DNA of 63,979 bases, filler included, from an uncultured bacterium (GTDB taxonomy: Bacteria > CAYSBA01): NCBI GenBank assembly GCA_964429075.1. It is 9 parts of 9 records of this genome, joined end to end, with 100 filler letters (N's around TTAATTAATTAA, not from the genome) between each part and the next. Parts side by side here need not be neighbours in the genome. Positions count along the whole stretch, not along the records: positions 44,562 to 51,669 come from CAYSBA010000060.1; 8 more parts are not named here. One strand, 5' to 3'. Under the pieces are notes generated by a model. That model worked only from the letters and a program-made list of their open reading frames with translations, ran no database searches and had not been told where the DNA came from. The translations under genes and the position numbers were made by a program. Shown piece after piece: positions 13,237-63,979 of the stretch; within the stretch, counting starts at the first letter, position 1, and every line of letters begins with the position of its first letter.

Positions 13237-13813
13237 TCAACAAATCCCTGTAGTAGTCTTCGAAGAAGTGAGTGATTCGGTCGCAAAGGCTCCCTGTTAA
13301 AGTAGATGCAGATTCAAGGAAATCGAAATCGAGGAACAGTAGGCTTATTTCAGAGTCAAGTACATGTATTGCAGGGAAGGATTTTGATTTTATCGGTTTT
13401 GAAAGATCAATCCTTATGAACCCATCTATATCCTTTATCTTTTTGACAAGATCTTCAATTTCTAAAAAGAGTTCAAATTGCATGGGTGAACTCAACTGTG
13501 CAATAAGACCATCTTTGTATCTACTCAGCTCATCCAGAATTGGTCTTCTACTCAACCAGAGTGTATATTCTGGGAAATCTTCAAGACCGTTGACAACTGT
13601 ATCTATGAGTCGATTTATGAGATGATCCAATCTTTCAGGATCTCTATCAACTCCGGTTAATGTAAGGTCAAACAGAAATGTTGGTGCGTCGTTTATCAGT
13701 TCATTCCTATCAATAGAGGAGGCATTATCAAGAGAAGGATCAATTCCCCTGTTCATCAGCAGATCCTGAATTATAGAAAGAAGTCTGTTATGTTCATTGA
13801 GTCTTTTTTTCAT
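13211..13813 (-). CDS. Hypothetical protein
   Basis: 200-aa ORF co-oriented with and overlapping its neighbours; no motif recognised. Confidence 0.65.
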   Translation of the reverse strand: MKKRLNEHNRLLSIIQDLLMNRGIDPSLDNASSIDRNELINDAPTFLFDLTLTGVDRDPERLDHLINRLIDTVVNGLEDFPEYTLWLSRRPILDELSRYKDGLIAQLSSPMQFELFLEIEDLVKKIKDIDGFIRIDLSKPIKSKSFPAIHVLDSEISLLFLDFDFLESASTLTGSLCDRITHFFEDYYRDLLNELSEDEL

Positions 13814-13847
13814 CTCAATTTAGATATAACAATTATTTGATCATATT

Positions 13848-14936
13848 TCAATGCCTTATTAAAACTGGCATCCTATCTGTCCATATCATCCTATATAGAT
13901 ACCCACTGTTAAAAACATAAAATAATCCATATTCATTAATTAGGGCAGAGGATGTAAAGGCCCTATCAGGATAGGCAACCCCACTAATAGGATTCAAAAC
14001 AAAGATGGTTTTACCAAGCGCAAGATCGATCACAAAGATTGGTCCAGCAAAATTTGAAACTACACACCTTGTACCATATACACTTACATCATCTGGCAAT
14101 TTTAAGCCCACTGCAGGTATGCTTTTTATGACAACACCAGAAGGATCTAAGATTGTAATGCCATCACGAACAGGGATTAAAATTTTGTAATTATAACCTG
14201 CTGGCTTACCCAATTTGATCTGAAATTTTCTGCTCCAGTTGATCCTGAGATCGTAGCTTATAGATGTGATCTTTTGATCATCGCACACAGCTACAAGCTG
14301 TGAAATTTCTTTTATCTCTGTTAGCCAGATCAACTGTGAGTTACAGATTTTAATATAATCTTTGACATCTCCATTTTTAGGATTAATTAACACAAGATTA
14401 CCGTCCCGCCTTGGATAAAAAAGGAAATCTCCAGCAGCGATTGGAGCAGGGTCTGGGATGACTGGTTGATAATCTATTGCAGGGCCATCTAAGTTCCATA
14501 TTTCCTTTAAGTCTTTTTGATTTATTGCGATCATACCACCATTTATAGTACCAAAGATCAAAAGATCTTTGTATCTGACTATATCGGTAAGGGCAGTTGT
14601 GTCGAGTTCGGCAGTGTTGAGTATCTTTCCAGTTGTAATATCTAACTTTAACAGTCTGCCGTCTGCACACAATAAAAAGATATTTTTATCCATGATAAAT
14701 GGCCTGGCATAGCAGAAAATTCCAAGATCTCTTTTCCACAGTATTGTGCCATCGGTCTTTTTAACTAGGGAGATTGTATCGGCTGCAGTTACAATAAGAC
14801 CGTATCTGGAATCTGTAATCTTTGGCAAAGATAATTTCTGGTAGCCCTTTGAGTTAGGATTAAAGACTTTCGTTTCCCAGAGGGTCCTGTAAGATTTTTT
14901 CCAGCTTCTTTTTAAAGAATCAGTAAAGGCACTTTC
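13848..14936 (-). CDS. PQQ-like beta-propeller protein (BamB-like), 5' truncated
   Basis: Repeated G.L..LD..TG...W blades; frame open to the contig edge. Confidence 0.72.
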   Translation of the reverse strand, partial: ESAFTDSLKRSWKKSYRTLWETKVFNPNSKGYQKLSLPKITDSRYGLIVTAADTISLVKKTDGTILWKRDLGIFCYARPFIMDKNIFLLCADGRLLKLDITTGKILNTAELDTTALTDIVRYKDLLIFGTINGGMIAINQKDLKEIWNLDGPAIDYQPVIPDPAPIAAGDFLFYPRRDGNLVLINPKNGDVKDYIKICNSQLIWLTEIKEISQLVAVCDDQKITSISYDLRINWSRKFQIKLGKPAGYNYKILIPVRDGITILDPSGVVIKSIPAVGLKLPDDVSVYGTRCVVSNFAGPIFVIDLALGKTIFVLNPISGVAYPDRAFTSSALINEYGLFYVFNSGYLYRMIWTDRMPVLIRH

Positions 14937-15036
14937 NNNNNNNNNNNNNNNNNNNNNNNNNNNNNNNNNNNNNNNNNNNNTTAATTAATTAANNNNNNNN
15001 NNNNNNNNNNNNNNNNNNNNNNNNNNNNNNNNNNNN
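14937..15036. other. Artificial contig-joining linker
   Basis: N44-TTAATTAATTAA-N44. Confidence 0.98.
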
Positions 15037-22379: not shown

Positions 22380-22479
22380 NNNNNNNNNNNNNNNNNNNNN
22401 NNNNNNNNNNNNNNNNNNNNNNNTTAATTAATTAANNNNNNNNNNNNNNNNNNNNNNNNNNNNNNNNNNNNNNNNNNNN
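22380..22479. other. Artificial contig-joining linker
   Basis: N44-TTAATTAATTAA-N44. Confidence 0.98.
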
Positions 22480-29782: not shown

Positions 29783-29882
29783 NNNNNNNNNNNNNNNNNN
29801 NNNNNNNNNNNNNNNNNNNNNNNNNNTTAATTAATTAANNNNNNNNNNNNNNNNNNNNNNNNNNNNNNNNNNNNNNNNNNNN
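29783..29882. other. Artificial contig-joining linker
   Basis: N44-TTAATTAATTAA-N44. Confidence 0.98.
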
Positions 29883-30244
29883 GTACAATACAGAAGAACC
29901 AGCTTACATAACAGACACTTTTCTAAGAAATTAAGTCTTCTTGTGAAAAGATTATCTTTTAATGATAAAACAAAATGCCTACAACCTATAGGCCCATCTA
30001 TAAGATATACTGGTATCCTTTTAAACCCAAGTTTTGTAGCCGCAATGAAACGTTTCTGCCCGCTCAAAAGTAGTAGTCTTTCTTTATCCTTTACTACTAA
30101 AAGGGGGGCTTTTATACCCAAGGTCCTTATATCTTCAATAAGATTCATGGATACTTCTGATGGATAGGTGTGACACAAAGACTCAGAATCAATATCCTCA
30201 GGGCTTAACCAGACTAATCTTTTTTGATCAACAATCACCTTCAA
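29883..30244 (-). CDS. ParB/Srx N-terminal domain protein (3' truncated)
   Basis: LIEDIRTLGIKAPLLV..LLSGQKRFIAA..LG..IPV..DNL..R.LN..E. Confidence 0.72.
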
Positions 30245-33200
30245 ACATTGATATAGTGTGCATCTGGATGAAAGGAGACAACTGCAGTTATTGAGTGAGA
30301 TGGTACAAGCTGGAAGTTTTCTGTAACCTCCATATCAATCTCAGATAGATTGAGGATCTTGTAGAGATCTTTTTGTATTGACAGATCGGGTATTGATGAA
30401 TAACCAGGGCTGAACCTTGCCCCCTGATAACTTCCCTTTAAGATTAACTCCACAGGCAAATCCTTCTCAATTCCGGCCTCCTCTCTGATCATCTTATGAA
30501 CATATTCTGCAAGCGCCTCTGCGAGTGTAGCACTGAGACCTGAGATTAGCACATAGTCCTGAAACCTGCCTTCTTTTTTCAATGCATCAAGATATTCTTT
30601 TATTCTTTTTCCTGTAGTTACAGCAAAAAGACCCACAACTACAGGCTGTTCTGCTCTAAAGAAATCTGAAATACTGAGTCCATCTGGTTTATTCTGTCGT
30701 GGTAGATAGATCTTAAAACTATGTAAGGAAGACTGAATTATCAATAAATTATCATCTACAGTTGCTCTGAAAAACCCATAACTTGCGAAAAATTTGATAT
30801 CGTTCATAGAGGTTATATCGTGCCATACCCTATTGAATAGTTCTTCAGCATCACTAAAATCCCTCTTTTTGAACTTCCACTGTCCTTTGAATAGAAATGT
30901 CTTGTTTATGTATGGTCTGACCTTTTCAGGATCAATTTTTACAATTTTTACTAAATCTGTCTTTACATCAATAGCAGGGTACTGCCCTTTAAGAATCCTT
31001 CTTGAACCTCTTTCTTGGATGATTAATTTTTCTTTTAACCTGTTATTGCTATTTTTCCTTACAGGACATATTTTCGGTTCGTTACAGATTTTATCGAGGA
31101 TCTTTTTGCATTCAAAACCATCTTTTGCGTAATACACCCCATGAGGATAGAGTGGAGCAAGGATCTTTTCGACAAATCTGCGATTTAACGCTGCCCCACC
31201 AACAATTACAGGGATATCTAAACCTCTTTTGGAAAACACAACAAGATTGTCTTTCATAACCATGGCAGATTTTACTAACAGACCGGACATCCCTATGGCT
31301 ACAGAATCATATTTTTCCCTTGCCTCAATAATCTTTTCAACCGGCACCTGGATACCGAGATCAATAACTTCGTACCCACTGTTTTCAATAACAAGTTTTA
31401 CAAGGTTTTTTCCTATATCATGGACATCCCCTTCCACCGTGGCAAGTATAAATGTTGCCTTTGCTGGTAATTTTTCCTGATCCGAGTGCTGCTTCAGATA
31501 TGATACTATCTTGCTTGATACTTCAGCCGATTTCATTACATAAGGTAGTTGCATACTCCCCTTTTCAAANNNNNNNNNNTTCAAAAAGAACACCCACCTT
31601 CTCCATTGCAGGCAAGATAACCTCCTCTAAGAGTACATTTTTACCCTTCTCCATAAGTATCTTTTTTACCAGTTCTGAAAGATGAGATGTCCTCCCTTCG
31701 ATAATCATCTCTTTTAATCTAACTACAGGATCTTCTATCGATTCAACGCTTTTGATTTCACCCTGTATGTTTTTAGACCGTTTTGCTTCTACAATCTCAA
31801 TTAGCTCAAATAGTGGATCACCTTCTGTGGTCAAAAAGAGTTTTGTCCCGAGATCAAAAGTTTTGCTATCAATCTGGTCCTTATAAATGATTTTTGATGG
31901 GTTTACAATTGCAGCAGTAAGGCCTTTTTCTTTTGCAATCGCCAGAAATACACTATTTATCAGATCCCTGACCATTCCTTTTAGTCCATGGGATACATTA
32001 CTTATTCCAAGAACACTACCTGAACCTTCAAAGTTTTCTGAAATCCATCTGACTGCTTCAAGGGTTGCCCACGCCCTTTTTCTTGAATCTACTGAACCAT
32101 CAGCAATAGAAAACGTAAGAGGATCAAACAATATATCTGTTGGTTCAAGCCCCATCTTGTTTACACATATATTATATGCTCTTTCAAAGATCCTCTTTTT
32201 CCTATCAAGTCCTTCTGCCATGCCATCTTCATCCATTGCTGAGATGATAACAGAAGCTGCATGCTCCTTTACAAGCTCAATACCTTCTATAAATCTATCC
32301 TCTCCATCAATAAAATTTAGTGAATTAATAATTGCTCTGCCGGGATATAAAGCTAATGCCTCCTGTAATGCCAAAAGCTCGGTAGAATCAAAGACAAGTG
32401 GTGCATTTAAAGATCGTGCAAGACGGGGTATTATCCGTTTGTAAAACTCTATTTCATCTCCGGTTGTCATTGCTACAGAGATGTCCATTGCCTGTGCACC
32501 GAGTCGCTCCTGATCCCTTGCAAACTCCTCGATTGCATCAAGATCTTGCGACAAAAGCAGCTCTCTAAATCTTTTTGAGCCTGTAGCATTACACCTTTCT
32601 GATATGATTAATATCTTTCTGTTCTGAAAAAGTGGCGTAGCCTGATATAGGCTTGTAATGTATGGTTTTGTTATGGATTTTCTTTTTCTGGGGCTTACAG
32701 ATTTTATTTTTTCTTTTATCTTTTTAATAAATTCTGGGGTCGTACCACAACAACCACCTACAAATTCAATATGTGTATCGTTCACAATATCATAAATATG
32801 TCTGGCAAAGGTATCTGGTGTCATTGAATATATTAGCTCTCCATCTTTCTGTTCTGGTAACCCGGCATTTGGCTGAACTGACACAGCCCTTGTTACATTT
32901 TTTGCAAACAGCCTGACATGATCGAGTAATGAATCAGGACCCAGAGAACAGTTAAAACCAAAGCAATCAATAAATGGATAGGACATAAAGGTGTAAAGTG
33001 CAGCAAGCGGAGTGGTACCAAAAAGTAGTCTGCCGTTTCGCTCAACCGTAAATTGCAGAAAAACAAAGGGTCTTTTATTTCTATTTTTTAGCAACCTGTA
33101 CAAAAGAATACATACCGCCTTTGCCTGAAGTGGATCCTGTACAGTCTCAACAATTATTGCATCCACACCGGCGTCTAGAAAGGCCTTTACTTGTGGTTCA

Positions 33201-33601
33201 TAGGAACCTATAAGGGTCTTTAAAGTTGATTTCCCAGCAGTTGGTGGGAACCTTCCTGGTCCTATAGAGCCTGCAACAAAACCACCGTAATCTCGTGCCA
33301 CCTCAATGGCAAAATTTGCAGCAGAAAGATTTATTTCATAGGTGTATTTTGATAAACCATGCTCTTTTAATTCCAGATAGGATGCCCCAAATGTGTTTGT
33401 CTCCACTATGTCCGCCCCAGCCTTCAGATATTCCTCATGGATTGACTGTACATAAGATGGATCAGATAGGTTCAACTCTTCAAGACATCTAACAAAAGAT
33501 GCCTGCTTCTGAAGCATAGTGCCCATTGCACCATCAAAAACAAGGACACGATCCTCTACTAAATTCATTAATTTGGACCCACTTGGAGGGCTGTAGCGCA
33601 T
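30241..33601 (-). CDS. metH: Cobalamin-dependent methionine synthase (one gene, split in the ORF track by the gap at 31570-31579)
   Basis: DGAMGT, GGCCGT (Hcy-binding), ERCNATGSKRF (pterin), GDVHDIGKNLV (B12), RFSPGY (activation); gap flanks overlap (TTCAAA) and give VLFEKGSMQLP. Confidence 0.93.
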
Positions 33602-33607
33602 TTTTTA

Positions 33608-37171: not shown

Positions 37172-37271
37172 NNNNNNNNNNNNNNNNNNNNNNNNNNNNN
37201 NNNNNNNNNNNNNNNTTAATTAATTAANNNNNNNNNNNNNNNNNNNNNNNNNNNNNNNNNNNNNNNNNNNN
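37172..37271. other. Artificial contig-joining linker
   Basis: N44-TTAATTAATTAA-N44. Confidence 0.98.
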
Positions 37272-44461: not shown

Positions 44462-44561
44462 NNNNNNNNNNNNNNNNNNNNNNNNNNNNNNNNNNNNNNN
44501 NNNNNTTAATTAATTAANNNNNNNNNNNNNNNNNNNNNNNNNNNNNNNNNNNNNNNNNNNN
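44462..44561. other. Artificial contig-joining linker
   Basis: N44-TTAATTAATTAA-N44. Confidence 0.98.
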
Positions 44562-45061
44562 GAAACATACAGTGTGCCAGACCAGCCACCGTTTTTTTTA
44601 CTCTTAAGATAGGTCTCAATATTATCTATATCTGTTGCTGTCCAAGGTGCATTTGTATCAGGATTCTTATCCCATACAAAATTACTGTCAGAATAGGTGG
44701 TGCCCGGGATAGGTTTGTACGGGCTCTTATAGCGTTGACCATTTATATAAAGACCAAACTCAATCATCTCATCTCCGGTAGTCTGCTTGTGTCTTATATA
44801 CATTGTGACTGAATTTATGATAGCCCCCTGATAGGAAGGATCATTGCTCATCGTTGAATAGAGCTCTCTTTTGTCGGCGTTCGCTGTGGCAGCCGTGGTG
44901 TCCGACTGATCTCCCAGCTCAGTCCCGTTCCAATTCCACTGTCTGTTATCCCTTCCGCTTCTTCCATTAGACCTGATTGTAACCTGATCTGCAAAGGAAG
45001 GCGTAATAATGATACATATTATAATAAAGCATAATATATTTAGAATCCTTTTTTTTACCAT
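44562..45061 (-). CDS. Secreted protein, N-terminal fragment (beta-rich; 3' truncated)
   Basis: Signal peptide ending SFA, N/T/G/W-rich extracellular composition; 3 bp downstream of the cytochrome gene. Confidence 0.7.
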
Positions 45062-45064
45062 TTA

Positions 45065-45853
45065 TCACTCCGTACTGGAGTTTGAGTCCGCATAGTGGGG
45101 CGCATGACAGGAAAGGCAGGTCACCATCATGGCCCCACCTCCAGTATCTCTGACCTTAAGATCATTAGAAGAGATTCCATCGCTCGGTTGAGACGCTCCA
45201 TCTGCATCGAGAGGTACTGATCTGTCATAGTTCATCCCGTTTTGATTCAGTGTCACGCCACTTGGGTGACTTTTATATGAACCATCCCATGTCCTTACTG
45301 CACTCAATGGATTAGAAGGTGCCCAGGCAGAATGGCAGTTGTGGCACAACTGACCCTGATCGTTGTTTATTCTCATGTAATGCCTCCCTGCACTTCCAGG
45401 AGTTGTTGGTGCATCAGGATCGAAGGGTGTATTCTTTTGACTGTGCTGGTCGTGACAGGTGGAACACATGATTTTCCCGCTGTCTAGCCTCCTTGACATC
45501 TCTTGATTCGTTGGAGTGCTTGCGCCGTAATTTGAGTTGTTTACATCTGCATCCCACCGGTGAGAGGTACCTGAAACTCCAGGGGTTGCCTGATCGTTGG
45601 AATCGAAAGGTTTTGTGCCGGCATCACCACCAGATGTATGACACTGCATGCAGACCGTTGCATTGCCAATCCATTTAGTGAGAGCCATCCCCGGGGCATG
45701 ACCACCGTGGCATGTCTTACAGCTGTAATTATTTGGTGCACAGGAGCCTGTATCGCTATGGGGGCAATCGAGTGCAAAAACTCTACCTACATGTAGCATC
45801 AGAGCTACAAAAACAATAAGATTACTAATTATCAGACATTTTTTGTTTGCCAC
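45065..45853 (-). CDS. Secreted pentaheme c-type cytochrome
   Basis: Signal peptide; CKTCH, CMQCH, CSTCH, CHNCH, CLSCH; distal His candidates (SHRW, SHP); GTG start with AGGAG RBS. Confidence 0.9.
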   Translation of the reverse strand: MANKKCLIISNLIVFVALMLHVGRVFALDCPHSDTGSCAPNNYSCKTCHGGHAPGMALTKWIGNATVCMQCHTSGGDAGTKPFDSNDQATPGVSGTSHRWDADVNNSNYGASTPTNQEMSRRLDSGKIMCSTCHDQHSQKNTPFDPDAPTTPGSAGRHYMRINNDQGQLCHNCHSAWAPSNPLSAVRTWDGSYKSHPSGVTLNQNGMNYDRSVPLDADGASQPSDGISSNDLKVRDTGGGAMMVTCLSCHAPHYADSNSSTE

Positions 45854-48800
45854 AATCCTCTCCTAATGAGGAGTAACATCAACAAAAGACCAATTATATT
45901 CATGCCACCTTCTGAGCTCGTACTACAACCACATCCAACGGGTGTCCGTGTCTCAATCGGTGTATTTTCTTTACCATTTTCTGAAACCCTTTTCTCTTCA
46001 GCAACCACCCTGTAGACTCCCCATCCTGTATTTGTAATACGACATATACGTTTATCGCTATAACATTCAGCATCTTTTGTTTCCTTAAGTTGACCGTATG
46101 TATAGTACTCAAATTTTATGTCTGTTACAGTATCAAGGTCTATCCCATCTTTCAAAGGTAGATAAATTATCATACTATCTGTAAGATCATTATTGTCAGA
46201 GCCCACAAAAACAGATGATGTAATGTCTATCTTTTCATCTTGATTCGCAATATTGGCCTCACCTACACCAACCCAGCCTTCCTCTTTAACACCCTCTGGA
46301 AACTCCACAACAAGATTATCAAGCGGATCGTTATCCTTTTTATATCTGAGCATAATATCAGAGATTCCGTGAACCCTTCTTAACATAATTGGTCTGTTTG
46401 TTACAAAAAGAACAAGCCTCGATGGAGCTGAGCAATATAATTGATCACAACTTCGCAGCCTGTATACATACACAGCATTGGAAACAGATGGCGAGATTTT
46501 TAAGATGTCATCTTCAGTTGAAAAGCTTGACTCAGGTCCGGCTGTCTGAATGAGTCCTCTTTGCAGAGTATCACCATCTGGATCATAACTCCATGAATCA
46601 TGGATCTCAATCGTATTACTGAAACCCTTGAGTAATGGCTCTATCTCTGAAATCAAAGGTGGAGAATTCTCACCTGCTACAGTAACATACGCAACTTTCG
46701 GAATACCCCAGTTTTTCCCGTCTGTGGCATTTACCTCAAAACCATAGACCCCTGCATATTCTGGACTGAATTCAAAAAGACCAGATCGTACATCAGCTGT
46801 GTTAGAAGGAGGCCCCTCTATCTGATTCCACAGAAATTCTATACTATCTCCATCTGGGTCATAGCTTGACTCTGCAGACAAAACCACCAGATCACCTACA
46901 GAGGCATTAACTGTATTGTTATCAACTCTAACAACGGGTACATGATCTTCGTCTGTCTCTACTGAAAAACAAAAGTTCGAGGGCAAAAAGGAATCCTCAC
47001 CCATATAGGGGATTAGACTGTAGCAGTATGTTCCCACATCTGATGGAGCTACCCTAATATTCAAAAGTGTAGCATCCTCAATCATTGCACCTGGTCCACT
47101 TGTCTGTTTCCAGTAGTAACCGAAATCTCCATTAATATTTCCATTTAAATAGACATATTCTCCCAGATGCCAGCTGGTCTCTCCATTTATTACAGGTGTT
47201 GGTGCTGAAAAGCCATCCTGTTCTACGAAGACTACAACCTTTTTTGAATCAAGAAGTGTATTATCAAGATATAGTTCTGCCTCAAAAATAAAAACACCCT
47301 TATGGGCTGCAAAGAATGCAAGGGTACCATCCTCAGATACTGTATAATCAATATCCTGTCCGGATACAGACTTCCAGATTAGTGAATAATCGAAGGTATC
47401 ACCTGGGATATAGTGTGGCCTTATCTTCACTATCCTTCCCATCTCAGTTCTATATTCCTTTAGAACTGATAGAAATGGATAGGATGGATCTGGTACTACA
47501 AGAAGCTCTATTTTTTTTCTACTTTCTGCACCTTCTGAATCGGTTGCAATAACAAGAAGCTCGTATTTCCCAGGGACATCAACGTTGCCATTAAAGATAC
47601 TACCACCATCTGGTAGATCAAGTTGCGATGGACCGGTCAACTGATGCCAGCTAAAATTTATATCATCACCATTTGGATCAACACTTCGTGAAAGATCTAT
47701 TAAAAAGTCTTGATCCTTAATGACCCTGTAAAAGCCCTTGGAAATAATCTTTGGTGGAAGATTTACAACCCTTATTTCTGCAAAATCTGGGTCACTATCT
47801 ACCTTCCCGTCGTTTACAACAAGTCTGAACACATATGTACCTGCCTTTTTAAGAGCTACCTCTGCCTTTTTGTCATCTTTGCTTGAGAAAAACACATCCT
47901 CAGGCCCTGAATCGAGACTCCAATGGTAGGTCAGAGAATCGTTGTTTGGATCTGTGCTTGGTGATCCATCAAGGGTTATCAGGGATGGGTAAATTGTATT
48001 GATATAGTCTTTTTTAATCTGTGCAACAGGTATATTGTCTGAAGGATCGAGTGGATCCAGAATATTGTTTTTTACCTCTGCAAGATCATCCACTCCATCA
48101 TGATCGGTATCACGTGAGAATGGATCTGTACCATTTCTGTATTCAGAGATATTTAAAAGTCCATCCCCATCTGAATCAAGAAAGGCATCCAGTGAATTAA
48201 GTGGGTCAAGCCCCTTTTGTGTTTCCCAAACATCCGGGATACCATCACAATCGGAGTCATTGTTACATATCACTGGATTAGAATCTTTTGTCTTGAAATC
48301 CACAATGGAGTGGTTGCCAGAAGAGACGACAACAAGATCCCCATAAGGGGAAAAAATCAGTCTTTTTGAGAGGTATAAACCTTCATCCAGATCTATTTCT
48401 GAGACAATACTGTTGAAACTACCATCAGGATTAAAGGCCTGAATCCTGCTAAGATAGACATCACTAACATATATTCTACCATAGTTGTCTGTTGTTATTC
48501 CAAGACCCCGTTTTAGCTCATTATCATTTGTACCCTCATTAGAAAAGCTTGTGATAAAGTTTCCATCACTACTGTAAATCTCTATTCGCTGATACTTTGC
48601 ATTTATCAATAAGATGCTACCATCAGGCTTGTATGTGCAGGCAGATGGCCTGCCATCAATGTCAAATGAGGCTGTTATTTTGCCATAAAGGTCAACTGTT
48701 GTTATTGTAGATAATCTTGGTGAACAGAGGAGTAGATTGTTACCATCCTTCGAAAGGGCAATGTCGGTGATATAATCAAGGCTATCAAAAACTGAAACCA

Positions 48801-49785
48801 ACTCTGTTAGTTGTTTATTTAAGGATAATTTATACAGCTTTGCTCCGTTGCCTCCACTAAAATAGATGTCCCCTCCGACTATTTCAAGGGCAAGAGGATT
48901 ATCAAGTCCTTCGAATGAGTATATCTTTTTTAAACTGCTATCAAATACCGATATCCTGTTTTTTGATGGCTCAGAAACATATATACGACCAAGATTATCA
49001 CTGACAATGTCGAAGGGTGAAAAATCCACGCCTATATATTTTTTGTTTTTAACAGCAAGACTTACAACCACTGAGTCTTTTGCAGTGGTGGTGTTCCCAT
49101 CAGAATCTGTAACACTACATGTTATCTCAAAGGAACCTGCAGTCTGTGGAAGAGTCCAGTTGACCCTATCAGGAATGTTATCATCAGTACCGCTTAAAGA
49201 CCCACCTGTTACACTCCAGTTAAATGAAAGTGGTTGACCATCAGGATCGTAGGATGAACATATCACCTCAACAGTATCACCGGGAAGTACCCTTTTGGCA
49301 CCAACAATTAGGCTATCAATTACTGGAGGGTTGCCAGAAGATACAGTCAACGACTTTGTAAAGGTTGCGTACTGCCTGCCACCACACATCCATGTCCCGG
49401 AATCTGGAACACTTACCGTTATTGTGTACTCACCCTCAATATCTGGAGCATTCCAAACTGCTGATGTCTCAAATGGGCTCTGTGATCCATCCATCTGAAT
49501 TTTTGATAGAGTACCACCATCTGAAGACCATTCTACTAGATCACTCCTTATCCTCTTACCACAGCCTGAGGTACACACCTGATCAATCCCACAATCCGGA
49601 TCATAGACCTTCAGGGTAAGTGTGACCTTTTCAGAAGGTCTAATTGTGCTTTTTGATACTGTAAATGAAATCAGTTCTGGTGCAGAATTGGCCCTTGCAA
49701 CACCTGCTGTGAATTCAAAAATTGAGATAAGAATGACCAGAAATTTAAGGTCATTGCCGACTCTCAGTATCCTGCAAAGGGTCAT
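45832..49785 (-). CDS. Large surface protein: Ig/PKD domains, NHL beta-propeller, Ca-binding DxDxDG repeats, PKD array, MYXO-CTERM anchor
   Basis: Signal peptide; DPDG..L.F.W repeats; GRIYVSD..RIQAF NHL blades; DSDCDG/DSDGDG/DTDHDG; C-terminal GCGCSTSSEGG-hydrophobic-RR. Confidence 0.85.
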   Translation of the reverse strand: MTLCRILRVGNDLKFLVILISIFEFTAGVARANSAPELISFTVSKSTIRPSEKVTLTLKVYDPDCGIDQVCTSGCGKRIRSDLVEWSSDGGTLSKIQMDGSQSPFETSAVWNAPDIEGEYTITVSVPDSGTWMCGGRQYATFTKSLTVSSGNPPVIDSLIVGAKRVLPGDTVEVICSSYDPDGQPLSFNWSVTGGSLSGTDDNIPDRVNWTLPQTAGSFEITCSVTDSDGNTTTAKDSVVVSLAVKNKKYIGVDFSPFDIVSDNLGRIYVSEPSKNRISVFDSSLKKIYSFEGLDNPLALEIVGGDIYFSGGNGAKLYKLSLNKQLTELVSVFDSLDYITDIALSKDGNNLLLCSPRLSTITTVDLYGKITASFDIDGRPSACTYKPDGSILLINAKYQRIEIYSSDGNFITSFSNEGTNDNELKRGLGITTDNYGRIYVSDVYLSRIQAFNPDGSFNSIVSEIDLDEGLYLSKRLIFSPYGDLVVVSSGNHSIVDFKTKDSNPVICNNDSDCDGIPDVWETQKGLDPLNSLDAFLDSDGDGLLNISEYRNGTDPFSRDTDHDGVDDLAEVKNNILDPLDPSDNIPVAQIKKDYINTIYPSLITLDGSPSTDPNNDSLTYHWSLDSGPEDVFFSSKDDKKAEVALKKAGTYVFRLVVNDGKVDSDPDFAEIRVVNLPPKIISKGFYRVIKDQDFLIDLSRSVDPNGDDINFSWHQLTGPSQLDLPDGGSIFNGNVDVPGKYELLVIATDSEGAESRKKIELLVVPDPSYPFLSVLKEYRTEMGRIVKIRPHYIPGDTFDYSLIWKSVSGQDIDYTVSEDGTLAFFAAHKGVFIFEAELYLDNTLLDSKKVVVFVEQDGFSAPTPVINGETSWHLGEYVYLNGNINGDFGYYWKQTSGPGAMIEDATLLNIRVAPSDVGTYCYSLIPYMGEDSFLPSNFCFSVETDEDHVPVVRVDNNTVNASVGDLVVLSAESSYDPDGDSIEFLWNQIEGPPSNTADVRSGLFEFSPEYAGVYGFEVNATDGKNWGIPKVAYVTVAGENSPPLISEIEPLLKGFSNTIEIHDSWSYDPDGDTLQRGLIQTAGPESSFSTEDDILKISPSVSNAVYVYRLRSCDQLYCSAPSRLVLFVTNRPIMLRRVHGISDIMLRYKKDNDPLDNLVVEFPEGVKEEGWVGVGEANIANQDEKIDITSSVFVGSDNNDLTDSMIIYLPLKDGIDLDTVTDIKFEYYTYGQLKETKDAECYSDKRICRITNTGWGVYRVVAEEKRVSENGKENTPIETRTPVGCGCSTSSEGGMNIIGLLLMLLLIRRGLWQTKNV

Positions 49786-49798
49786 TTTGACTGTTTCT

Positions 49799-50206
49799 TT
49801 AATGGCCTTCTCCTTTATTATGACAGTTCATACATAGGGTGTCAAAATCCATCCGCAACATACTTTTATGCCTGCTTTTTCCGTGCGGTTCATGACAGGT
49901 AATACAGGTTAACCTTCTATTGCGAGTAAGAGGAAGATCTGTCTTTTCAATCTGTATCACACCAACAGGATGTCCACCTATTCCTCTATGGCATACCATA
50001 CTACACCCCTTTGTTTGCTTTAAATCCCTCTCGTGACAGCTCTGACATGGCAGTGTCCTTTTGCCATGAATAACACTCTTTGCTTTTAGAACAGGCCCTT
50101 TCTGTACTATTGCTGAACAGTCCCATAATAAATATAATACCGAAATATATATAATTTTCAAAAAGATGCCGGGTTGTGTTCCTTTCCATGACAATTTAAA
50201 TAGCAC
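49799..50206 (-). CDS. Small tri/tetraheme c-type cytochrome (doubled CxxCH type)
   Basis: CQSCH, CSMVCH (CX3CH), CITCHEPH, LCMNCH; N-terminal hydrophobic segment. Confidence 0.85.
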   Translation of the reverse strand: MLFKLSWKGTQPGIFLKIIYISVLYLLWDCSAIVQKGPVLKAKSVIHGKRTLPCQSCHERDLKQTKGCSMVCHRGIGGHPVGVIQIEKTDLPLTRNRRLTCITCHEPHGKSRHKSMLRMDFDTLCMNCHNKGEGH

Positions 50207-51669
50207 TCCCCTCTAAATGCTCCAAGATCAATAAACTCAAGACGTCCATTTTTTGAAGGACTAACTTTTGTAAAACGCGGATCCTTGTTAAAACGAATAA
50301 GATTTGTATTTTTTTTACTACCATGTGAATCATGGCAGGTGTAGCAGCTCGTCTTCTGATCCACAATGTGTAATTTGTGATACNNNNNNNNNNTGATACT
50401 TAAAACTCTGATCGGACAGGATAGAATTTCTATCATGACAGTTGTAACAGAGTTGATAGACAAAATAGGTCTCTGCAATTCCATCCTTTCTTGTATAATT
50501 GAACTTCAGTATCGCAATATAACCAGAGCCATGTACATTTTTTACACCCTTTTCATCAGAACCGTGACAATCCATACATCCAATTATTGAATCTGTATTA
50601 TAGGGTTTTAGAAGACTCGGGACATCTTTATTCCTTCCTGCAGCAAGGACTGGGTGGTATGATCTATTCCCGGGATCAAACTCCATTCTTTTGTCTCTTA
50701 TAAAAGTGTTGTCATTCGAGCTGTTGCCATGACAGTTTAGACAGACCTTATTCCAGCCACTTTCGTAATTGTAAACGATTATCTTTGGGAAAAATGGCTT
50801 TTTTAAAATAAAATTTGAAGAGCTAGTTACAAGATGTGGATCGTGGCAATCAACACACTCTGAGTGCATCTTATTTTGATCTATCCTGCCGGTGATCTTT
50901 TCAAGTGGTGAATGAAGACCACTAAGTTCTATTGGATGATGAGAATACTTTTTGAAATCCTCTTTGTCATCTCTGAGAGTAACATCCTGCGCAAGTCTTT
51001 TCTGATCTTTTGTTGCCCTACGCCTCTGTTTCCCATTGTGACAGTCAAAACATAGCTCCTCCTCCTTTGCATATAACATAGGGGTACCAGGGACACCATG
51101 TCCTTTGTGACATGAACCACATCCCAGAGGTAGTTTCGATCTATCTGCATGTCCGCTCTGTAGATTTATAGGTTCATGACATTTTAGGCATACACCATCC
51201 CACGTAGGGGTCCTCCAGAAGTGCGGTATTTTCTTTTGCGGTGAATAGTAATCGTCGTTGTGGGGATCATGACAGGATGTACACTGCACCTTCCCCTTTT
51301 CATCAAGCAGGGTCCTATCCCTGCCAATCCTTGGAGGTAATTTTAACCCACTTAATCTGTTGGCCTTTCTTTTTATAATTAGATCCTTGTTAAAAACGAA
51401 TGAAACAGGATGCATCCCGGATAAATCTGTCCCGAGATATCCCTTTGAATCGGGGGTAATCCTGCCCGAACTATCCACACCGGTCATATATTTTGGATCA
51501 ACCTTTCCTTTAATCAACATACCAATTGCGACTGTACCATCATGACAGCTCAGGCATAGTTTGCTTGCACCATCCGGCTGACCGGGAACAAATCCGATAG
51601 TTTTACTTTGATATAGTTTATAATTCTTTACAGAAGAGAGTTTGTGATTCCATAGGGCCTTCAGTGGTC
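50158..51669 (-). CDS. Multiheme c-type cytochrome with at least 11 heme motifs (5' truncated; split by gap 50384-50393)
   Basis: In-frame upstream extension GQPDGASKLCLSCHDGT; then CTSCH, CLKCH, CGSCH, CFDCH, CVDCH, CLNCH, CMDCH, CYNCH, CYTCH, CYLNCH; gap flanks overlap (TGATAC). Confidence 0.9.
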
Positions 51670-51769
51670 NNNNNNNNNNNNNNNNNNNNNNNNNNNNNNN
51701 NNNNNNNNNNNNNTTAATTAATTAANNNNNNNNNNNNNNNNNNNNNNNNNNNNNNNNNNNNNNNNNNNN
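51670..51769. other. Artificial contig-joining linker
   Basis: N44-TTAATTAATTAA-N44. Confidence 0.98.
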
Positions 51770-58862: not shown

Positions 58863-58962
58863 NNNNNNNNNNNNNNNNNNNNNNNNNNNNNNNNNNNNNN
58901 NNNNNNTTAATTAATTAANNNNNNNNNNNNNNNNNNNNNNNNNNNNNNNNNNNNNNNNNNNN
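58863..58962. other. Artificial contig-joining linker
   Basis: N44-TTAATTAATTAA-N44. Confidence 0.98.
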
Positions 58963-59103: not shown

Positions 59104-62100
59104 TCAGTAACTACCTATCAGTCTCACGAAAAATCCTCTATAGACATCATTTGCATCAACCAGCTCATCATCAACAAAGTTAGTCATATTATAGCCTGCA
59201 CCGATATATATTCCTCTGCCTGCAGGGAAAAGTAGTTCAAAAAGAAAACCAGATTCTCTATTCTTATTTAACCAGTCGGCATCAAAAAATTGTGTTAATA
59301 TTCTGTATTCGACTGCAAGTTCTGGACTGTTCTTGTCCCTCCCCAATGTATATCCGATCCTTGAAAGGGCAAGAATCAACCAGCTCTTTGTTGCATTTGC
59401 AAGAAGTACCTCCCTCTTTACATCCCTTCTTATTGCAAGTTTTGTAATTAGCTTAAGTCCCAGAGGCAATCTTACGGAGGGTGAAAGGCTAAGGGCAAAT
59501 CCTCTGCTTTCGCTGTAGTTGCCATAAGAGCCGTTGAGAGCTCCCTTAAGATACCATGACATACGAGAAAGGATCAAAAGTCCATCAAAAAGTCCGGGCC
59601 TTAAGGACTGACCGAATGTCAAAAGACCATAACGCGATATATCCTGTTTCTTTGTAATATCCCTTTCAATCGACAACTCAAGTGTACCAAGAAGACTGAG
59701 ATAATCTGTCCACCTGAAACCGGTTGCAAGTCTTAAACTATGCCCTATAGTATCACTCTGTGTTACCTCTCTGTTTTCATACCTTCCCTCATACATAAAT
59801 GAACCTTTCCATTTTTCTGAGTTCAAAAGTTCTGCCTTTATTGTCAAAAGATCCCTTGAGAACTGATCATTTTTGTCTTCGTTTGAATGAAACAGAAGTA
59901 ATGAAGGCGACACCTGCTGCCGTTCATAACCAATACCAATCTTTAAATCCCTTGTTATTTTAAATGTATCAGAATAACCAATTACCGCCTGTCCATAGGC
60001 TTCTTGTAGAGATGATTCCACCCTGTATTCAGAATATATATCACCCCTTTTTACCCCTATAATAGTACTGTTATTTATGCTGTTATTTTCTCTTTTGAAA
60101 TTCTGATCTATATAGAGCTGGCCTCTTTTATTTTTTAATTTTAAGCCTATTTTTGTGGAGTTATCACCACTCCATCTCAGCTTTTCCTGAAGATCAAAGG
60201 ATAGATTCTTGTTAATATCCCATTCAGCAGCAAGTGAAGTGGCTGCCCTGTCCCAGTAATCATTATATCCCACCTGACCAGCCCTTAAATGATACTCTTG
60301 TGAGATTTTGAGTACCAGAGGCCTCATGGCTCTGAAAGATGTCCCGAACCCAATGGCATCATCGAACCGACTATCTGGATCGTTAGAGTACTGTATGAGA
60401 GAATGGGCATACTCTGCATTCCAGATGGCACCGAATGCCTTTTTGTCGATCCGGAGTTTTGATGTCTGTTGATTTAAGAGATACTGACCATCAGCCGGTC
60501 TGTCCCTTCTGTAAAGACCCTCATGGGTCAACTGTATTTTAGTATCACTGTTAGCATCAAAGCTCATAGAGAGCCTAAACCTATGCATATTTGCTGCAGT
60601 AAAGGAATCTCTATTTGTAAATCCCGGTTCCTGATAGTTATATTCTCCCTCAAATCTTAAAGAATCTGGTAGAGAATGATGAATATCCTTTGCATTAATA
60701 TGAATAGACAGATCAACAGCAGGATGGTTACTGTCGGTTGATACAATATCGATCTTTTCATAACTGATACCACCATCAAAAGATACATTTTTATAACCAT
60801 CAAGACCTTTACTACTACCTGCTTCGATCGATATATCAGAATCATTACCAAACTTATAATCCAATTTTCCAGATATCAGTCTGTATGGTGCTGAATCGTC
60901 TTTGATCTGCATGTAACCTGCACCTACACGTAACCTATCCCATAGTGTGGTTGAGATGTAGCCGGCTCCTGTCGAAGGGCTCTTATTTTCATTAGAATAT
61001 GCATCATATTCAACAACCAAAAATACTTGATCACCATCTGAGGAATCGATCGGGTTTGTATCTATAATATCAGCACTGTCGCTCTGGCCTATACTCTCTT
61101 TAAGTACAATTCTTCCTGTTTTATAATCTATTGTATAATCTCTGTTTAATATCTTTTTTACCCTGCTTTTAACTATCCCTGTATCCCGGTCTCTTATAAC
61201 TATCTCAACATCCTCTGTCTGTTCAACGATATCTGTATGACTTGTGTAATATACACTGCCACCTGTTGCTGCGATCTCATCAAGCACATGGACCCTCTTT
61301 TGCTCCTTCTCGGTCACAAAACCTTCTGCATTGATAGCCACATCCTTTGAAACCTTTTTATCCAGCCTTAGTCTTGCCCCCATTGCAGTCTTTTTAAAGC
61401 GAAAGATATCTCCTTTTGTGATGTCAATATGGGTAATGCCATATACAAACTCAGATTTATCTGCATTTATAGCAAGATACAGAGGACCCTCAGTGTTGAC
61501 ATCCTTTACTACAGGAGCTGTATCTCCAAAGACAGGATAATACCTTGCTGGATCAAATAGGTTGGGAAGCTCACTTTCTGTTGTTGAGGATGCACTGTCG
61601 AGATGAGCTGTTATCTCAAGTTTCTCAAAGGGTCCCATTTCTCTATAAAGGCCTTTAAAGTAGGTACTGAGCCTGCCATTTAGTCTGATTCTATCTTTAA
61701 GAATTGAAGTTTTGTTAACAAACCACTGATCCCATAATCTATCCTTTCCAGAAAAGATACTACCATAACCAAGGGCCATCAAAAACCAACCTGTATCCTT
61801 TACAACATAGTGTTTTTTTATAATATAAGGTTCCATTCCTTTCATACCCACTTTGATAACTGCATCGAGTTCCCTTTTATCCTCTACTGGTAGATTGTAA
61901 GAAAATCGTCCTGATGATTCGATAAAGACACTCTCTCCATTTATAGTTACACTGGCGCCTGGTGGTACAAAACCGTGCACAAATAAGAACTTCCCCTTTA
62001 TAGTATTTCCGGAAGGCAGGTATATCATAGTCGGTATACCCTTTTTATAAGTTTTTTCATAAGAAGTTGTCTTCTTTGGAACAAAATTTAGAACAACACC

Positions 62101-63979
62101 TTTTTTAGACACTTTTACTTCAACAATTCCACCAGGCTCTTTTTCCTTTATAATTTTTGGTTTTATTAAATAAAAGCCACCTTTACCTTTTAATAGGAGA
62201 TTCTGATCAAGGGACTCTTTTTCAATGAAGCCTTCGACCTGACCATCCAATGTTTCTGATACATAAATACCCTTTTTGTTAACCCTCTCAGCAAATTGAG
62301 CTCTATCTACTCTGACATCAAGATCCGGTATATTAAATAGTTCAAAGACCACCCTTCTATTTAATGAGCGGTTTTTATGAGATATATTAGGTACAACTGG
62401 ATATTCAGAGCCATGTGGTATAATCTTTACAAACTCGAGTCTTTTTCTGGAAGATAAAATACGCAATATCTCTTTGCCTATACTAAGGGAACGTTTTTTA
62501 TCTACTTCGCTATCTCCACTGTCATCAACATATAGATGCATAACAGCAGCGTTATATTTAAGTATTTGATCGATATAGGGTGATATTCTCTTAGAAAGAA
62601 GTTTTTCAGATTCACTGAGGGCATCTACTTTGATGGATTTATCCGGTTTTCTCAGTACCACAAATCTATCTACATCTGATTGATAAATAACACCATCTGA
62701 TTCTGTATAGACAAGATAGTTGATAACATTTATGTCTCTGTTGAGGAGGTCCTTTATGTCTTTGAGATTTAGCTTAAAGAGACCCTTTGTCTTTTTGATA
62801 CCGATAACCCTGTTTTTATCTTCATTGAACAGGACAAGCTTTGCTTTTCTGTCTGGACCCTTTATAACAAATTCAATAGTTGAGTTGAGTTCAGGATCGT
62901 ATAAAATGTGTTGTTTGATACTGATTTCAGACTCAAGTTCTAAAAGATCTATAAATTTTTTACCAATCCTGACATAACCCTCCTTAAGATCACCCTCTAT
63001 CCTGATCTTCTTCTTTCCCTTATCCTTTTTTGCTAAGGGACTTTTCCTTACAAGAAAACCTTTTTCCTCTTTAAACCTGCACTCTGCTGGAAAGTTTATG
63101 CTCTCAACAAGTCCCGGGGTAAGATCGAGTATTAAACTCTCCTTTTTAATATTGATACCCTCTGGTACTGTATTATCATCTATCTTCACCATCCTGACAC
63201 CAGGATCAACTCCTGGAAAATGAAATCTACCAGATGGATCGGAGTAGGCATACCATCCAGTATCGATAAAGAATCTTATTCCTCCAATCCCGAATTCACC
63301 AGGATTTCTTATACCATCTTTGTTATCATCACAGAATACCTCACCGAGTAGTGTTGCAAGATCAAGGTCCGGGTCTTCTACAAGTTCTACATCAAATTCA
63401 GATCTGTTTGATATAGGGGTTCCATCAGCACTGACCACAATTGCAGAGTTAGGATGATTACCCAAGCTTGCATTAGACCTGAATACAGCATGATAGAGGA
63501 TTGTAACAGAACTTTTTGCATCAAGCTCAAAGGGCCCTATTAAAAGTATATTCCCAGCGCGATTTACAGAGAAGGCATTGTTGTCTATCTTCTTTCCGGT
63601 ATGGTCAAGCAATACAACAGAATCTTGGTCAACTCTCATCTGTGGGTCTATAATATCCCTTATATACAGACCTCCATTTAGATAGTCATAATTAAGATCA
63701 ATATTTGAATTGTTTTGAATGGTTATAGTATAGGTTACGATATCTGATCTTACAAATTGTGTACTGTCTGCACGCTTTTCAATTTTGATTAGTGAAGAGA
63801 GAGGATCGAGTGGTATATGGTTGTCGTAGAATCTGCCGCCACCACTTTTTAGATCAAACTCAAGGTAATAGGGATCACCGGGGTCAGGAAAATCATTCCT
63901 GCCAATAAAGCCATCAGATTCAAACTCATACACACCTTCTGCATGAAACAGGATTGATGGGAATTGATAGAAATACCCT
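59104..63979 (-). CDS. Very large outer-membrane protein: DUF11-like domain, SdrD-B-like domain, degenerate OmpA-like domain, large C-terminal beta-barrel (5' runs off window)
   Basis: IEKRAD..DIVTYTITIQN; GEVFCDDNKDGIRNPGEFGIGG; NRSLNRRVVF; YYPVFGD; C-terminal IGAGYN..F..GFFVRLIGSY. Confidence 0.75.
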   Translation of the reverse strand, partial: GYFYQFPSILFHAEGVYEFESDGFIGRNDFPDPGDPYYLEFDLKSGGGRFYDNHIPLDPLSSLIKIEKRADSTQFVRSDIVTYTITIQNNSNIDLNYDYLNGGLYIRDIIDPQMRVDQDSVVLLDHTGKKIDNNAFSVNRAGNILLIGPFELDAKSSVTILYHAVFRSNASLGNHPNSAIVVSADGTPISNRSEFDVELVEDPDLDLATLLGEVFCDDNKDGIRNPGEFGIGGIRFFIDTGWYAYSDPSGRFHFPGVDPGVRMVKIDDNTVPEGINIKKESLILDLTPGLVESINFPAECRFKEEKGFLVRKSPLAKKDKGKKKIRIEGDLKEGYVRIGKKFIDLLELESEISIKQHILYDPELNSTIEFVIKGPDRKAKLVLFNEDKNRVIGIKKTKGLFKLNLKDIKDLLNRDINVINYLVYTESDGVIYQSDVDRFVVLRKPDKSIKVDALSESEKLLSKRISPYIDQILKYNAAVMHLYVDDSGDSEVDKKRSLSIGKEILRILSSRKRLEFVKIIPHGSEYPVVPNISHKNRSLNRRVVFELFNIPDLDVRVDRAQFAERVNKKGIYVSETLDGQVEGFIEKESLDQNLLLKGKGGFYLIKPKIIKEKEPGGIVEVKVSKKGVVLNFVPKKTTSYEKTYKKGIPTMIYLPSGNTIKGKFLFVHGFVPPGASVTINGESVFIESSGRFSYNLPVEDKRELDAVIKVGMKGMEPYIIKKHYVVKDTGWFLMALGYGSIFSGKDRLWDQWFVNKTSILKDRIRLNGRLSTYFKGLYREMGPFEKLEITAHLDSASSTTESELPNLFDPARYYPVFGDTAPVVKDVNTEGPLYLAINADKSEFVYGITHIDITKGDIFRFKKTAMGARLRLDKKVSKDVAINAEGFVTEKEQKRVHVLDEIAATGGSVYYTSHTDIVEQTEDVEIVIRDRDTGIVKSRVKKILNRDYTIDYKTGRIVLKESIGQSDSADIIDTNPIDSSDGDQVFLVVEYDAYSNENKSPSTGAGYISTTLWDRLRVGAGYMQIKDDSAPYRLISGKLDYKFGNDSDISIEAGSSKGLDGYKNVSFDGGISYEKIDIVSTDSNHPAVDLSIHINAKDIHHSLPDSLRFEGEYNYQEPGFTNRDSFTAANMHRFRLSMSFDANSDTKIQLTHEGLYRRDRPADGQYLLNQQTSKLRIDKKAFGAIWNAEYAHSLIQYSNDPDSRFDDAIGFGTSFRAMRPLVLKISQEYHLRAGQVGYNDYWDRAATSLAAEWDINKNLSFDLQEKLRWSGDNSTKIGLKLKNKRGQLYIDQNFKRENNSINNSTIIGVKRGDIYSEYRVESSLQEAYGQAVIGYSDTFKITRDLKIGIGYERQQVSPSLLLFHSNEDKNDQFSRDLLTIKAELLNSEKWKGSFMYEGRYENREVTQSDTIGHSLRLATGFRWTDYLSLLGTLELSIERDITKKQDISRYGLLTFGQSLRPGLFDGLLILSRMSWYLKGALNGSYGNYSESRGFALSLSPSVRLPLGLKLITKLAIRRDVKREVLLANATKSWLILALSRIGYTLGRDKNSPELAVEYRILTQFFDADWLNKNRESGFLFELLFPAGRGIYIGAGYNMTNFVDDELVDANDVYRGFFVRLIGSY

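Follow-up and report, generated by a model that had tools for sequence, protein, structure and literature searches.

The DNA analysed here (hereafter the window) is a stretch of 63,979 bases from an uncultured bacterium, made up of a chain of contigs of approximately 7 kb which are separated by spacers of the form N44-TTAATTAATTAA-N44, with some 10-N scaffold gaps as well. We describe one of these contigs (44562-51669; 7108 bp, GC content approximately 0.40), which is cut at both ends and carries five tightly packed genes, g1-g5, all on the minus strand (Table 1); g1, g2, and g4 encode multihaem cytochromes, and g3 encodes a large propeller-bearing protein. The contig has 20 visible haem motifs (11 in g1, four in g2, and five in g4). 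Genes g1 and g2 overlap, as do g3 and g4 (by 22 nt), whilst 13 nt separate g2 from g3, and 3 nt separate g4 from g5; the N-termini of g3, g4, and g5 are signal-peptide-like, as judged by eye. A preliminary description of this DNA had reported five co-oriented, overlapping or nearly abutting genes with this number of haem motifs on a contig truncated at both ends, which translation and the coordinates confirm. A second assembly, of a public metagenome run from hot springs that probably represents the source sample, yielded one 5691-bp contig over 44574-50262, which differs from the window at 10 bases and has neither indel nor joint; a chimeric join is thereby excluded as the origin of the g5-g4-g3-g2 order. 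This was the only DNA run found to contain the stretch, and no RNA run was listed for it.

Table 1. Genes and features of the contig at window positions 44562-51669; g3 domains are given by residue range.
Feature	Position	Strand	Description
g1	51667-50396, then 50382-50161	-	424 + 74 codons, 5' end lost at contig end; 9 CxxCH, then 1 CxxCH + 1 CxxxCH
g1, part before gap	51667-50396	-	residues 1-164 (51667-51176) OmcE-like, with haem motifs 2-4; residues 173-424 start the 8-haem extension
10-N scaffold gap inside g1	50384-50393		apparent frame change across the gap
g1, C-terminal part	50158-50383	-	74 codons + stop; haem motifs 11 (CxxCH) and 12 (CxxxCH)
g2, small cytochrome	50206-49799	-	135 aa counted from GTG, real start may lie further downstream; 3 CxxCH + 1 CxxxCH
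g3, whole	49785-45832	-	1317 aa, no haem motifs; signal peptide, PKD pair, NHL propeller, Tsp3-like repeats, PKD/Ig array, C-terminal beta domain, MYXO-CTERM-like tail
g3, residues 34-240	49066-49686	-	two PKD/Ig domains; PF00801 matches 166-237; Cys-rich insert in first domain
g3, residues 241-505	48271-49065	-	six-bladed NHL beta-propeller (AlphaFold2, Foldseek, PF01436, ScyF NHL)
g3, residues 508-581	48043-48264	-	thrombospondin-type-3 (Tsp3)-like Asp-rich repeats of the calcium-binding type (NF047639, NF033765)
g3, residues 586-1060	46606-48030	-	stalk of approximately five PKD/Ig-like domains (PF22352 x3, PF18911 x2, PF17963 x2, PF21027)
g3, residues 1284-1317	45835-45936	-	GCGC motif + hydrophobic helix + RR at extreme C-terminus (TIGR03901)
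g4	45853-45065	-	262 aa; 5 CxxCH
g5	45061-44562	-	166 aa, 3' end cut; no haem motifs

Modelling of g3 residues 240-505 with AlphaFold2, from a 32-row alignment, gave a six-bladed propeller of 24 strands (predicted local distance difference test score, pLDDT, 89.1; predicted template-modelling score, pTM, 0.87), for which the best Foldseek matches were the NHL domains of TRIM3/TRIM2 (E 1e-18, TM 0.85). The propeller scores 20.0 bits against PF01436, the same as the cut-off, and E 1.8e-14 against the NHL domain of ScyF; in the predicted model, the NHL fold of g3 is confirmed as a six-bladed NHL β-propeller.

The gene directly downstream, g4, belongs to a family with 56 cluster relatives of similar length, nearly all of them metagenomic, in whose alignment the five CxxCH motifs and six further histidines are invariant or nearly invariant. 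A scan with the profile of this family (A1), taking one genome per species, yielded 79 loci from many phyla, against the six-frame open reading frames (ORFs) of which the window proteins were compared by BLAST. A homologue of the g3 propeller is present in 42 of the 79 loci: it lies directly upstream of the g4-like cytochrome on the same strand in 28 and is fused with it in one open frame in seven (35 loci in either arrangement), and is found elsewhere in the locus in seven more; in a further 15 there is no propeller and the upstream sequence is cut. As a background check, the propeller matches were counted in four genomes of 4.0, 3.7, 3.1, and 2.5 Mb, which have 2, 2, 5, and 3, respectively; 11 of these 12 adjoin OmcE/g1-like matches, where chance adjacency within 10 kb would be expected for at most approximately 4% by our own arithmetic.

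Five of the loci (L004, L007, L009, L016, and L043, from Zixibacteria, Deferrimicrobium, Krumholzibacteriota, and Acidobacteriota) share a recurrent cassette in the order NHL, OmcE-like 4-haem, 7+1-haem, NHL, g4-like, followed in L004, L007, and L009 by a 12-13-haem giant. In L043 the 4-haem and 7+1-haem genes are merged into one 11+1-haem gene, like g1. By gene order and homology, the window contig is this recurrent cassette with its first two cytochromes fused and its second NHL protein enlarged. Among Phycisphaerae/Planctomycetota metagenome-assembled genomes (MAGs; L052, L058-L061), the propeller and a 15-19-haem g4-like cytochrome occupy one frame of 1121-1336 aa.

Only generic multihaem matches to g1 are found in Pfam and NCBIfam. 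When the solved structures were searched with g1 alone, its residues 5-92 matched residues 66-155 of OmcE, the Geobacter filament subunit (7TFS; phmmer E=1.7e-9), and D. soudanensis OmcE (9YUQ) was matched as well. An alignment of 20 full-length relatives has 11 invariant CxxCH motifs and one CxxxCH, the family being approximately 560 aa long, and columns 7-221 of the profile built from these 20 members (A2) cover residues 9-231 of the 232 residues of OmcE 7TFS (E=1.8e-41; E=3e-31 against 9YUQ). Because this profile matches OmcE end to end, g1 is, judged by homology, a complete OmcE nanowire-subunit module fused to an 8-haem extension, with its first haem motif beyond the contig end; the kinship with Geobacter extracellular cytochromes asserted in the preliminary description is borne out by the same match. 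The family is very large, with at least 5007 clusters at E<=0.001 among 8000 candidates scored; the 120 matches listed are 520-663 aa long, and names in the family include Myxococcota, Anaeromyxobacteraceae, Nitrospirae, Candidatus Mariimomonas ferrooxydans, Thiotrichales, and Phycisphaeraceae MAGs. The reading frame of g1 changes at the scaffold gap, the six bases preceding which recur directly after it; if both ends overlap at these repeated bases, the frame of g1 is continuous and its sequence agrees with the family consensus around the gap, and the frame change is on these grounds probably a scaffolding artefact. Relatives with 12 haems and a C-terminus matching the part beyond the gap occur in 19 of the 79 loci.

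Four of the genomes behind the loci were searched with the g1-family profile, and the surroundings of the matches were read. In Geobacter hydrogenophilus (L095) and a Geobacter MAG (L098), the order is NHL (372 and 385 aa, lipoprotein-like), an OmcE-like 4-haem gene corresponding to g1 residues 1-164, a 7+1-haem gene corresponding to g1 residues 173-424 together with the part beyond the gap, and, last, a small gene with 3+1 haem motifs, which matches g2 (E 4e-6 and 6e-7). The small cytochromes of L095 and L098, and an ORF of L001, are 25-30% identical to g2 with every haem cysteine conserved; by homology and position, g2 is the small 4-haem cytochrome that in Geobacter comes after the OmcE-like/8-haem pair. 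The window contig resembles these paralogous cassettes in gene order and in the homology of g1 (there two genes) and g2, and differs in that the Geobacter genes are split and are followed by type II secretion system (T2SS) E and F genes and PilM, whereas on the contig g1 is fused and g3-g4-g5 follow.

The T2SS-F and T2SS-E genes lie directly after the cassette (L095 6452-9441, minus strand; L098 12261-16155, plus strand), with a PilM-like gene after them in L098; before the cassette stands a family-2 glycosyltransferase gene. The Geobacter cytochromes may be linked to an export machine that is of type II or resembles a type IV pilus. A second cluster in the same Geobacter genomes (L096, L097) has an OmcE-like gene accompanied by two genes with 8-11 haem motifs, one or two genes for NHL proteins, and a gene for an unnamed protein of approximately 800 aa. 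This gene content agrees with what Petersen et al. describe as the minimal omcE cluster, which comprises two multihaem cytochromes, two β-propeller lipoproteins, OmcE, and a large β-barrel. That NHL propellers are regular partners of such cytochromes, as the preliminary description had held, is upheld by the locus counts, by the Geobacter clusters, and by the account of Petersen et al.

The majority of the 416 matches to g3 share only its PKD, Tsp3, and Ig domains. The best full-length relatives (P0002, P0003, P0017, P0021, and P0022) are 26-30% identical over 65-84% of g3. The N-terminal PKD pair (residues 34-240) has BLAST matches in six of the 79 loci (best E 2e-43, in L043) and also matches relatives in the phylum of a Polyangia MAG; the Tsp3-like region matches NF047639 (510-561) and NF033765 (508-581), both far under cut-off, and is 56% identical to two metagenome contigs, L080 and L081; the C-terminal 257 residues have BLAST matches in none of the 79 loci. 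A Cys-rich insert of the DPDC...C.SGCG type in the first PKD domain (window 49560-49602, residues approximately 62-76), which is not a haem motif, is conserved in P0002, P0003, L043, L048, and L038, and could form disulfides or bind metal.

P0002 combines the architecture of g3 with a g4-like cytochrome in one protein, its pentahaem part being 43% identical to g4 (E 2e-60). Fusions of this type are present in both L080 and L081, with proteins 82% identical, and are thus not an assembly error. At P0002 residues ~1253-1360 (L081 ~13740-14060), a CFI-box-CTERM, hydrophobic segments, an internal signal-peptide-like stretch ending in AYA, and the pentahaem domain follow one another, an arrangement suggestive of a polyprotein open to cleavage by signal peptidase. 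The genes downstream of the fusion in L081 (14686-20721, plus strand) encode a protein with 14 haems and a domain of the MtrC/MtrF type, as well as a DUF4418 protein and an ABC transporter resembling MacB; further FtsX/MacB genes lie upstream of the fusion.

We surveyed 401 sampled genomes of the phylum of the Polyangia MAG with the PKD-pair-plus-NHL part of g3 (E<=1e-8), which was matched in 18 of them, at 23 places. The best four of the 23 all combine the g3 architecture with a g4-like cytochrome: in three, the open frame continues into such a cytochrome, with 14-19 haem motifs, and in the fourth the cytochrome is encoded by a 5-haem gene of its own, which comes next. Nine of the 23 places, the best four included, have visible multihaem ORFs; the other loci have only 1.5-kb flanks. 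The stalked architecture is, from these matches, recurrent rather than unique, occurring both in metagenomes and in the phylum of the Polyangia MAG. The preliminary description, which did not recognise it from described systems, had overstated its novelty, since the contig is a variant of the omcE/omcS-type cluster and the stalked architecture recurs elsewhere. The same description had named, as a result that would count against it, homologues of g3 never being syntenic with cytochromes; they are syntenic, and repeatedly fused.

What seems to be peculiar to g3 among these relatives is its MYXO-CTERM-like tail. MYXO-CTERM is defined by a cysteine motif, a hydrophobic helix, and basic residues at the extreme C-terminus, and the last 34 residues of g3 have this layout (GCGC, followed by a hydrophobic stretch and RR); no other window ORF of at least 90 aa has such a tail. 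Where g3 had been put forward as an NHL propeller joined to PKD/Ig domains and a surface-anchor tail, the domains and the propeller fold stand, whereas the match to MYXO-CTERM (TIGR03901) is only borderline, at 21.5 bits for the last 54 residues and 19.2 for the last 122 (cut-off 20). TraA of Myxococcus xanthus, a MYXO-CTERM protein, is alike in its C-terminal Cys motif, helix, and basic residues; TraA and other MYXO-CTERM proteins differ from g3 in that the score of g3 is borderline and no myxosortase is found among the 30 other window ORFs scanned.

The propeller partners of g4-like cytochromes in other lineages carry other tags. T9SS (type IX secretion system) sorting domains mark proteins exported across the outer membrane, and a T9SS type A sorting domain scores above cut-off in five of the 10 partners scanned (L004, L009, L016, L013, and L025) and barely under it in L037 (22.9 vs 23); the partner in L048 has choice-of-anchor D domains, and in three (L043, L005, and Geobacter L095) there is no tag. 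Five Geobacter propellers have lipobox-like N-termini (judged by eye), and in P0002, P0003, and P0021 a CFI-box-CTERM domain (76-96 bits, cut-off 40) stands at the C-terminus of the scaffold in place of MYXO-CTERM. This variety of sorting and anchor tags on homologous partners is the main support for surface tethering of g3, and fits a surface-tethered propeller which would hold or organise extracellular cytochromes.

No Pfam or NCBIfam match was found for the last gene, g5, and no counterpart by BLAST in any of the 79 loci. An exhaustive search gave 156 representatives at E<=1e-3, the best of which (P0297, 780 aa) is 42% identical from residue 2 and has fn3-like domains and no CxxCH. The N-terminal β-rich, unnamed domain of g5 recurs one to several times in large surface-type proteins, and domains of the Ig, fn3, cohesin, or CARDB type are present in those of them that were scanned; g5 probably encodes a secreted protein that lacks haem and is structural or adhesive in function.

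The other contigs of the window give some indication of the host. Because the contigs are joined by spacers (7436-7535, 14937-15036, 22380-22479, 29783-29882, 37172-37271, 44462-44561, 51670-51769, and 58863-58962), genes flanking a spacer are not genomic neighbours and have in common a bin rather than adjacency. The contig section 39850-44461 (plus strand) encodes, in a row, an OMP_myx_plus-like β-barrel (53.6 bits, cut-off 60), a GltC-like tetratricopeptide repeat (TPR) protein (229 bits, cut-off 450), and a long TPR protein, a layout which resembles the adventurous-gliding cluster; NCBIfam names such genes for myxobacteria. These hints, which rest on binning and on sub-threshold scores, are compatible with a Myxococcota- or Bdellovibrionota-like host. 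Elsewhere in the window, metH (30244-33604, minus strand) is split by a 10-N gap at 31570-31579, with its N- and C-terminal halves matching TIGR02082 separately, and a 1624-residue open frame with no NCBIfam match at 1e-5 (59107-63978, minus strand) runs off the window end.

Taken together, we consider it reasonably probable that the contig is a piece of an omcE/omcS-type extracellular-electron-transfer cluster of an uncultured low-GC bacterium, in which a surface-anchored, stalked propeller organises cytochromes. All of the proteins would be exported by Sec, with haem attached in the periplasm. The g3 protein would then be brought to the surface, where its MYXO-CTERM tail would keep it in the outer membrane. 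TraA is directed to the cell surface by MYXO-CTERM through type II secretion and is probably anchored at a lipidated cysteine (PMC12288465); by analogy, anchoring of g3 would use type II secretion and a lipidated cysteine. The propeller would sit at the tip of a stalk of approximately seven Ig-like domains, by our own estimate some tens of nanometres from the membrane if extended, where it may bind or organise g4, and perhaps g1, such that the haem chain would lie between the envelope and an electron acceptor or donor outside the cell.

Several observations weigh against this interpretation. As to the anchor, the borderline MYXO-CTERM match is unlisted when whole g3 is scanned at E<=0.01, the scan of the 30 other window ORFs yielded no myxosortase, and the GC content of the bin (approximately 0.40) is among the points that weaken the assignment, as is the linkage of the g3 contig to the gliding-gene contig by binning alone. 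The four g3-architecture relatives from the phylum of the Polyangia MAG have no recognisable anchor, and in P0002, the closest relative, the transmembrane hairpin between scaffold and cytochrome fits inner-membrane anchoring equally. As to the cytochromes, 22 of the 79 loci have no propeller at E<1e-5 despite sufficient upstream sequence, and g1, in a family of approximately 560 aa with 11 CxxCH and one CxxxCH, is not of the size of a free-standing 4-CxxCH OmcE (approximately 220-230 aa); not being a free OmcE-sized subunit, it may not polymerise in the manner of OmcE, the subunits of which form a filament by each donating a histidine to the next. Profile A1 is collinear with haem motifs 1-5 of OmcS (6EF8) at E 2.2e-5, with a domain E-value of 0.02 and high bias. 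Lastly, the contig, cut as it is at both ends, carries no β-barrel, second propeller, or haem-maturation genes. Complex prediction for the g3 propeller with mature g4 and four haems gave scores of 0.01 and 0.00, and is not evidence either way.

The same hardware could instead serve electron uptake, in iron or cathode oxidation, a possibility we hold to be the lesser one and which concerns physiology only, not structure. Candidatus Mariimomonas ferrooxydans MAGs are among the named sources of g1-family members, comparable parts are combined in the Uet system of Tenderiales that oxidise cathodes (PMC10734462), and in Desulfovibrio ferrophilus the clusters with NHL propellers function in electron uptake (PMC5815863). 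On the other hand, OmcE and OmcS, which are the relatives characterised best, serve the reduction of external acceptors (as reviewed in PMC12307469), and the sequence sets no direction of electron flow.

It is rather unlikely that the tail of g3 is a plain C-terminal membrane helix, with g3 anchored in the inner membrane, its stalk spanning the periplasm, and the propeller presenting periplasmic cytochromes to an outer-membrane conduit. Such an arrangement would accommodate the borderline MYXO-CTERM score and the lack of a myxosortase among the ORFs scanned, and the hydrophobic segments and internal signal-peptide-like stretch of P0002 would likewise leave scaffold and cytochrome periplasmic; the Geobacter propellers are lipoproteins, which could face either way. 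Against it stand the T9SS sorting domains in half of the scanned partners, the GCGC/helix/RR layout at the extreme C-terminus of g3, and the extracellular location of OmcE itself (Petersen et al.).

Alignment of the g4 and g1 families with hhalign gave one local paired-CxxCH match only, of 44 columns, by which g4 is ruled out as an overall homologue of the OmcE module; nor do we assign it to the OmcS family, since it has five haems in 262 aa, only the weak A1 match, and no PDB match of its own. Its AlphaFold2 model (24-sequence alignment; pLDDT 56.7) was too poor for a fold search. Speculatively, and with a low probability, g3-g4 would be an uncharacterised module of many phyla in which a pentahaem cytochrome, distinct from OmcE, OmcS, and OmcZ, polymerises into or caps a new wire, and an NHL propeller, tagged according to lineage with a lipobox, T9SS, CFI-box, or MYXO-CTERM signal, holds the base of that wire, here raised on a PKD stalk to tens of nanometres from the cell.

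We think it improbable that the genes encode a porin-cytochrome conduit of the Mtr/Pcc kind, with the cytochromes in or under a β-barrel and the propeller only stabilising the complex. Profile A1 does match PDB chain 6r2q_A, which we take to be MtrA of the Shewanella MtrCAB complex (E 2.6e-8, via repeated paired CxxCH motifs), and g1, g2, and g4 weakly match DmsE/MtrA-type decahaem NCBIfam models; a stabilising role for NHL propellers in an outer-membrane cytochrome complex was proposed by Deng et al. (PMC5815863), and omcE clusters include β-barrels (Petersen et al.). The decahaem models, however, score far under cut-off (TIGR03508, 49.9 vs 192.2 bits), there is no β-barrel gene on the contig, and the end-to-end match is to OmcE, a filament subunit. 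That g3 is an unrelated adhesin, placed among cytochrome genes by chance, would agree with the frequency of PKD, Tsp3, and Ig arrays in adhesins and with the many g3 matches that share only these, and is rejected as most improbable on the synteny and fusion counts (42 of 79 loci; 11 of 12 matches in four genomes; the P0002-type and Polyangia-phylum fusions).

In comparison with known systems, the contig is closest in parts to the omcE clusters of Geobacter/Desulfuromonas (7TFS, 9YUQ), with which it shares a complete OmcE module, in the g1 family, and multihaem cytochromes with propeller genes alongside. Unlike in those clusters, the OmcE module is here fused to an 8-haem extension, a pentahaem g4 is present, and no β-barrel is visible; the propeller there is a lipoprotein of approximately 370 aa, whereas here it belongs to a PKD-stalked protein of 1317 aa with a C-terminal sorting tail and no lipobox. 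Of the parts of the minimal omcE cluster, the truncated contig thus has cytochromes, an OmcE module, and one propeller, and neither barrel nor second propeller. The g4 family resembles the OmcS nanowire in its weak, collinear alignment with haem motifs 1-5; g4 has five haems in approximately 236 aa when mature, and OmcS has six in a 407-aa chain. Shen et al. (2025, in Cell Chem Biol) are said to have found that a β-propeller-like companion protein affects OmcS filament morphology, and a 2025 paper on OmcS assembly reportedly describes a pathway of porin-like type in which helper proteins take part.

NHL propellers in cytochrome clusters have already been published (PMC5815863; Petersen et al.; PMC10734462). 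The account of Uet, from Candidatus Tenderia electrophaga and Gallionella, gives an undecahaem and an extracellular tetrahaem cytochrome, two NHL-repeat proteins, and a porin in one cluster (PMC10734462); compared by gene content only, the cytochromes and NHL proteins are alike, whilst the porin, prolyl isomerase, and trihaem cytochromes of Uet have none seen to correspond on the window contig. In D. ferrophilus IS5, multihaem cytochromes are co-expressed with two NHL β-propeller proteins, for which the passages of PMC5815863 on these clusters, by whose description alone we compare them, mention neither a stalk nor a sorting tail. In the literature searched, under limited spellings (multi-heme variants excluded), no description was found of a propeller partner that is MYXO-CTERM-tagged, T9SS-tagged, or PKD-stalked.

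The OmcE modules and their partners reach far beyond the Desulfuromonadia, to Nitrospirota, Zixibacteria, Bacteroidota, Acidobacteriota, Planctomycetota, and Myxococcota MAGs, and this wide spread is useful for reading the potential for extracellular electron transfer from metagenomes. Here the usual small β-propeller helper of Geobacter appears enlarged to a 1317-residue stalked protein with a probable cell-surface anchor. The secretion, start, and cell attachment of cytochrome nanowires are an open question (PMC12307469, section 5.4; Petersen et al.). The near-exclusive occurrence of the propeller in cytochrome clusters, together with its repeated fusions and varied tags, leads to the testable idea that the propeller is a surface holder of cytochromes; if true, on the most far-reaching reading, it would be the long-sought anchor or assembly platform of cytochrome nanowires.

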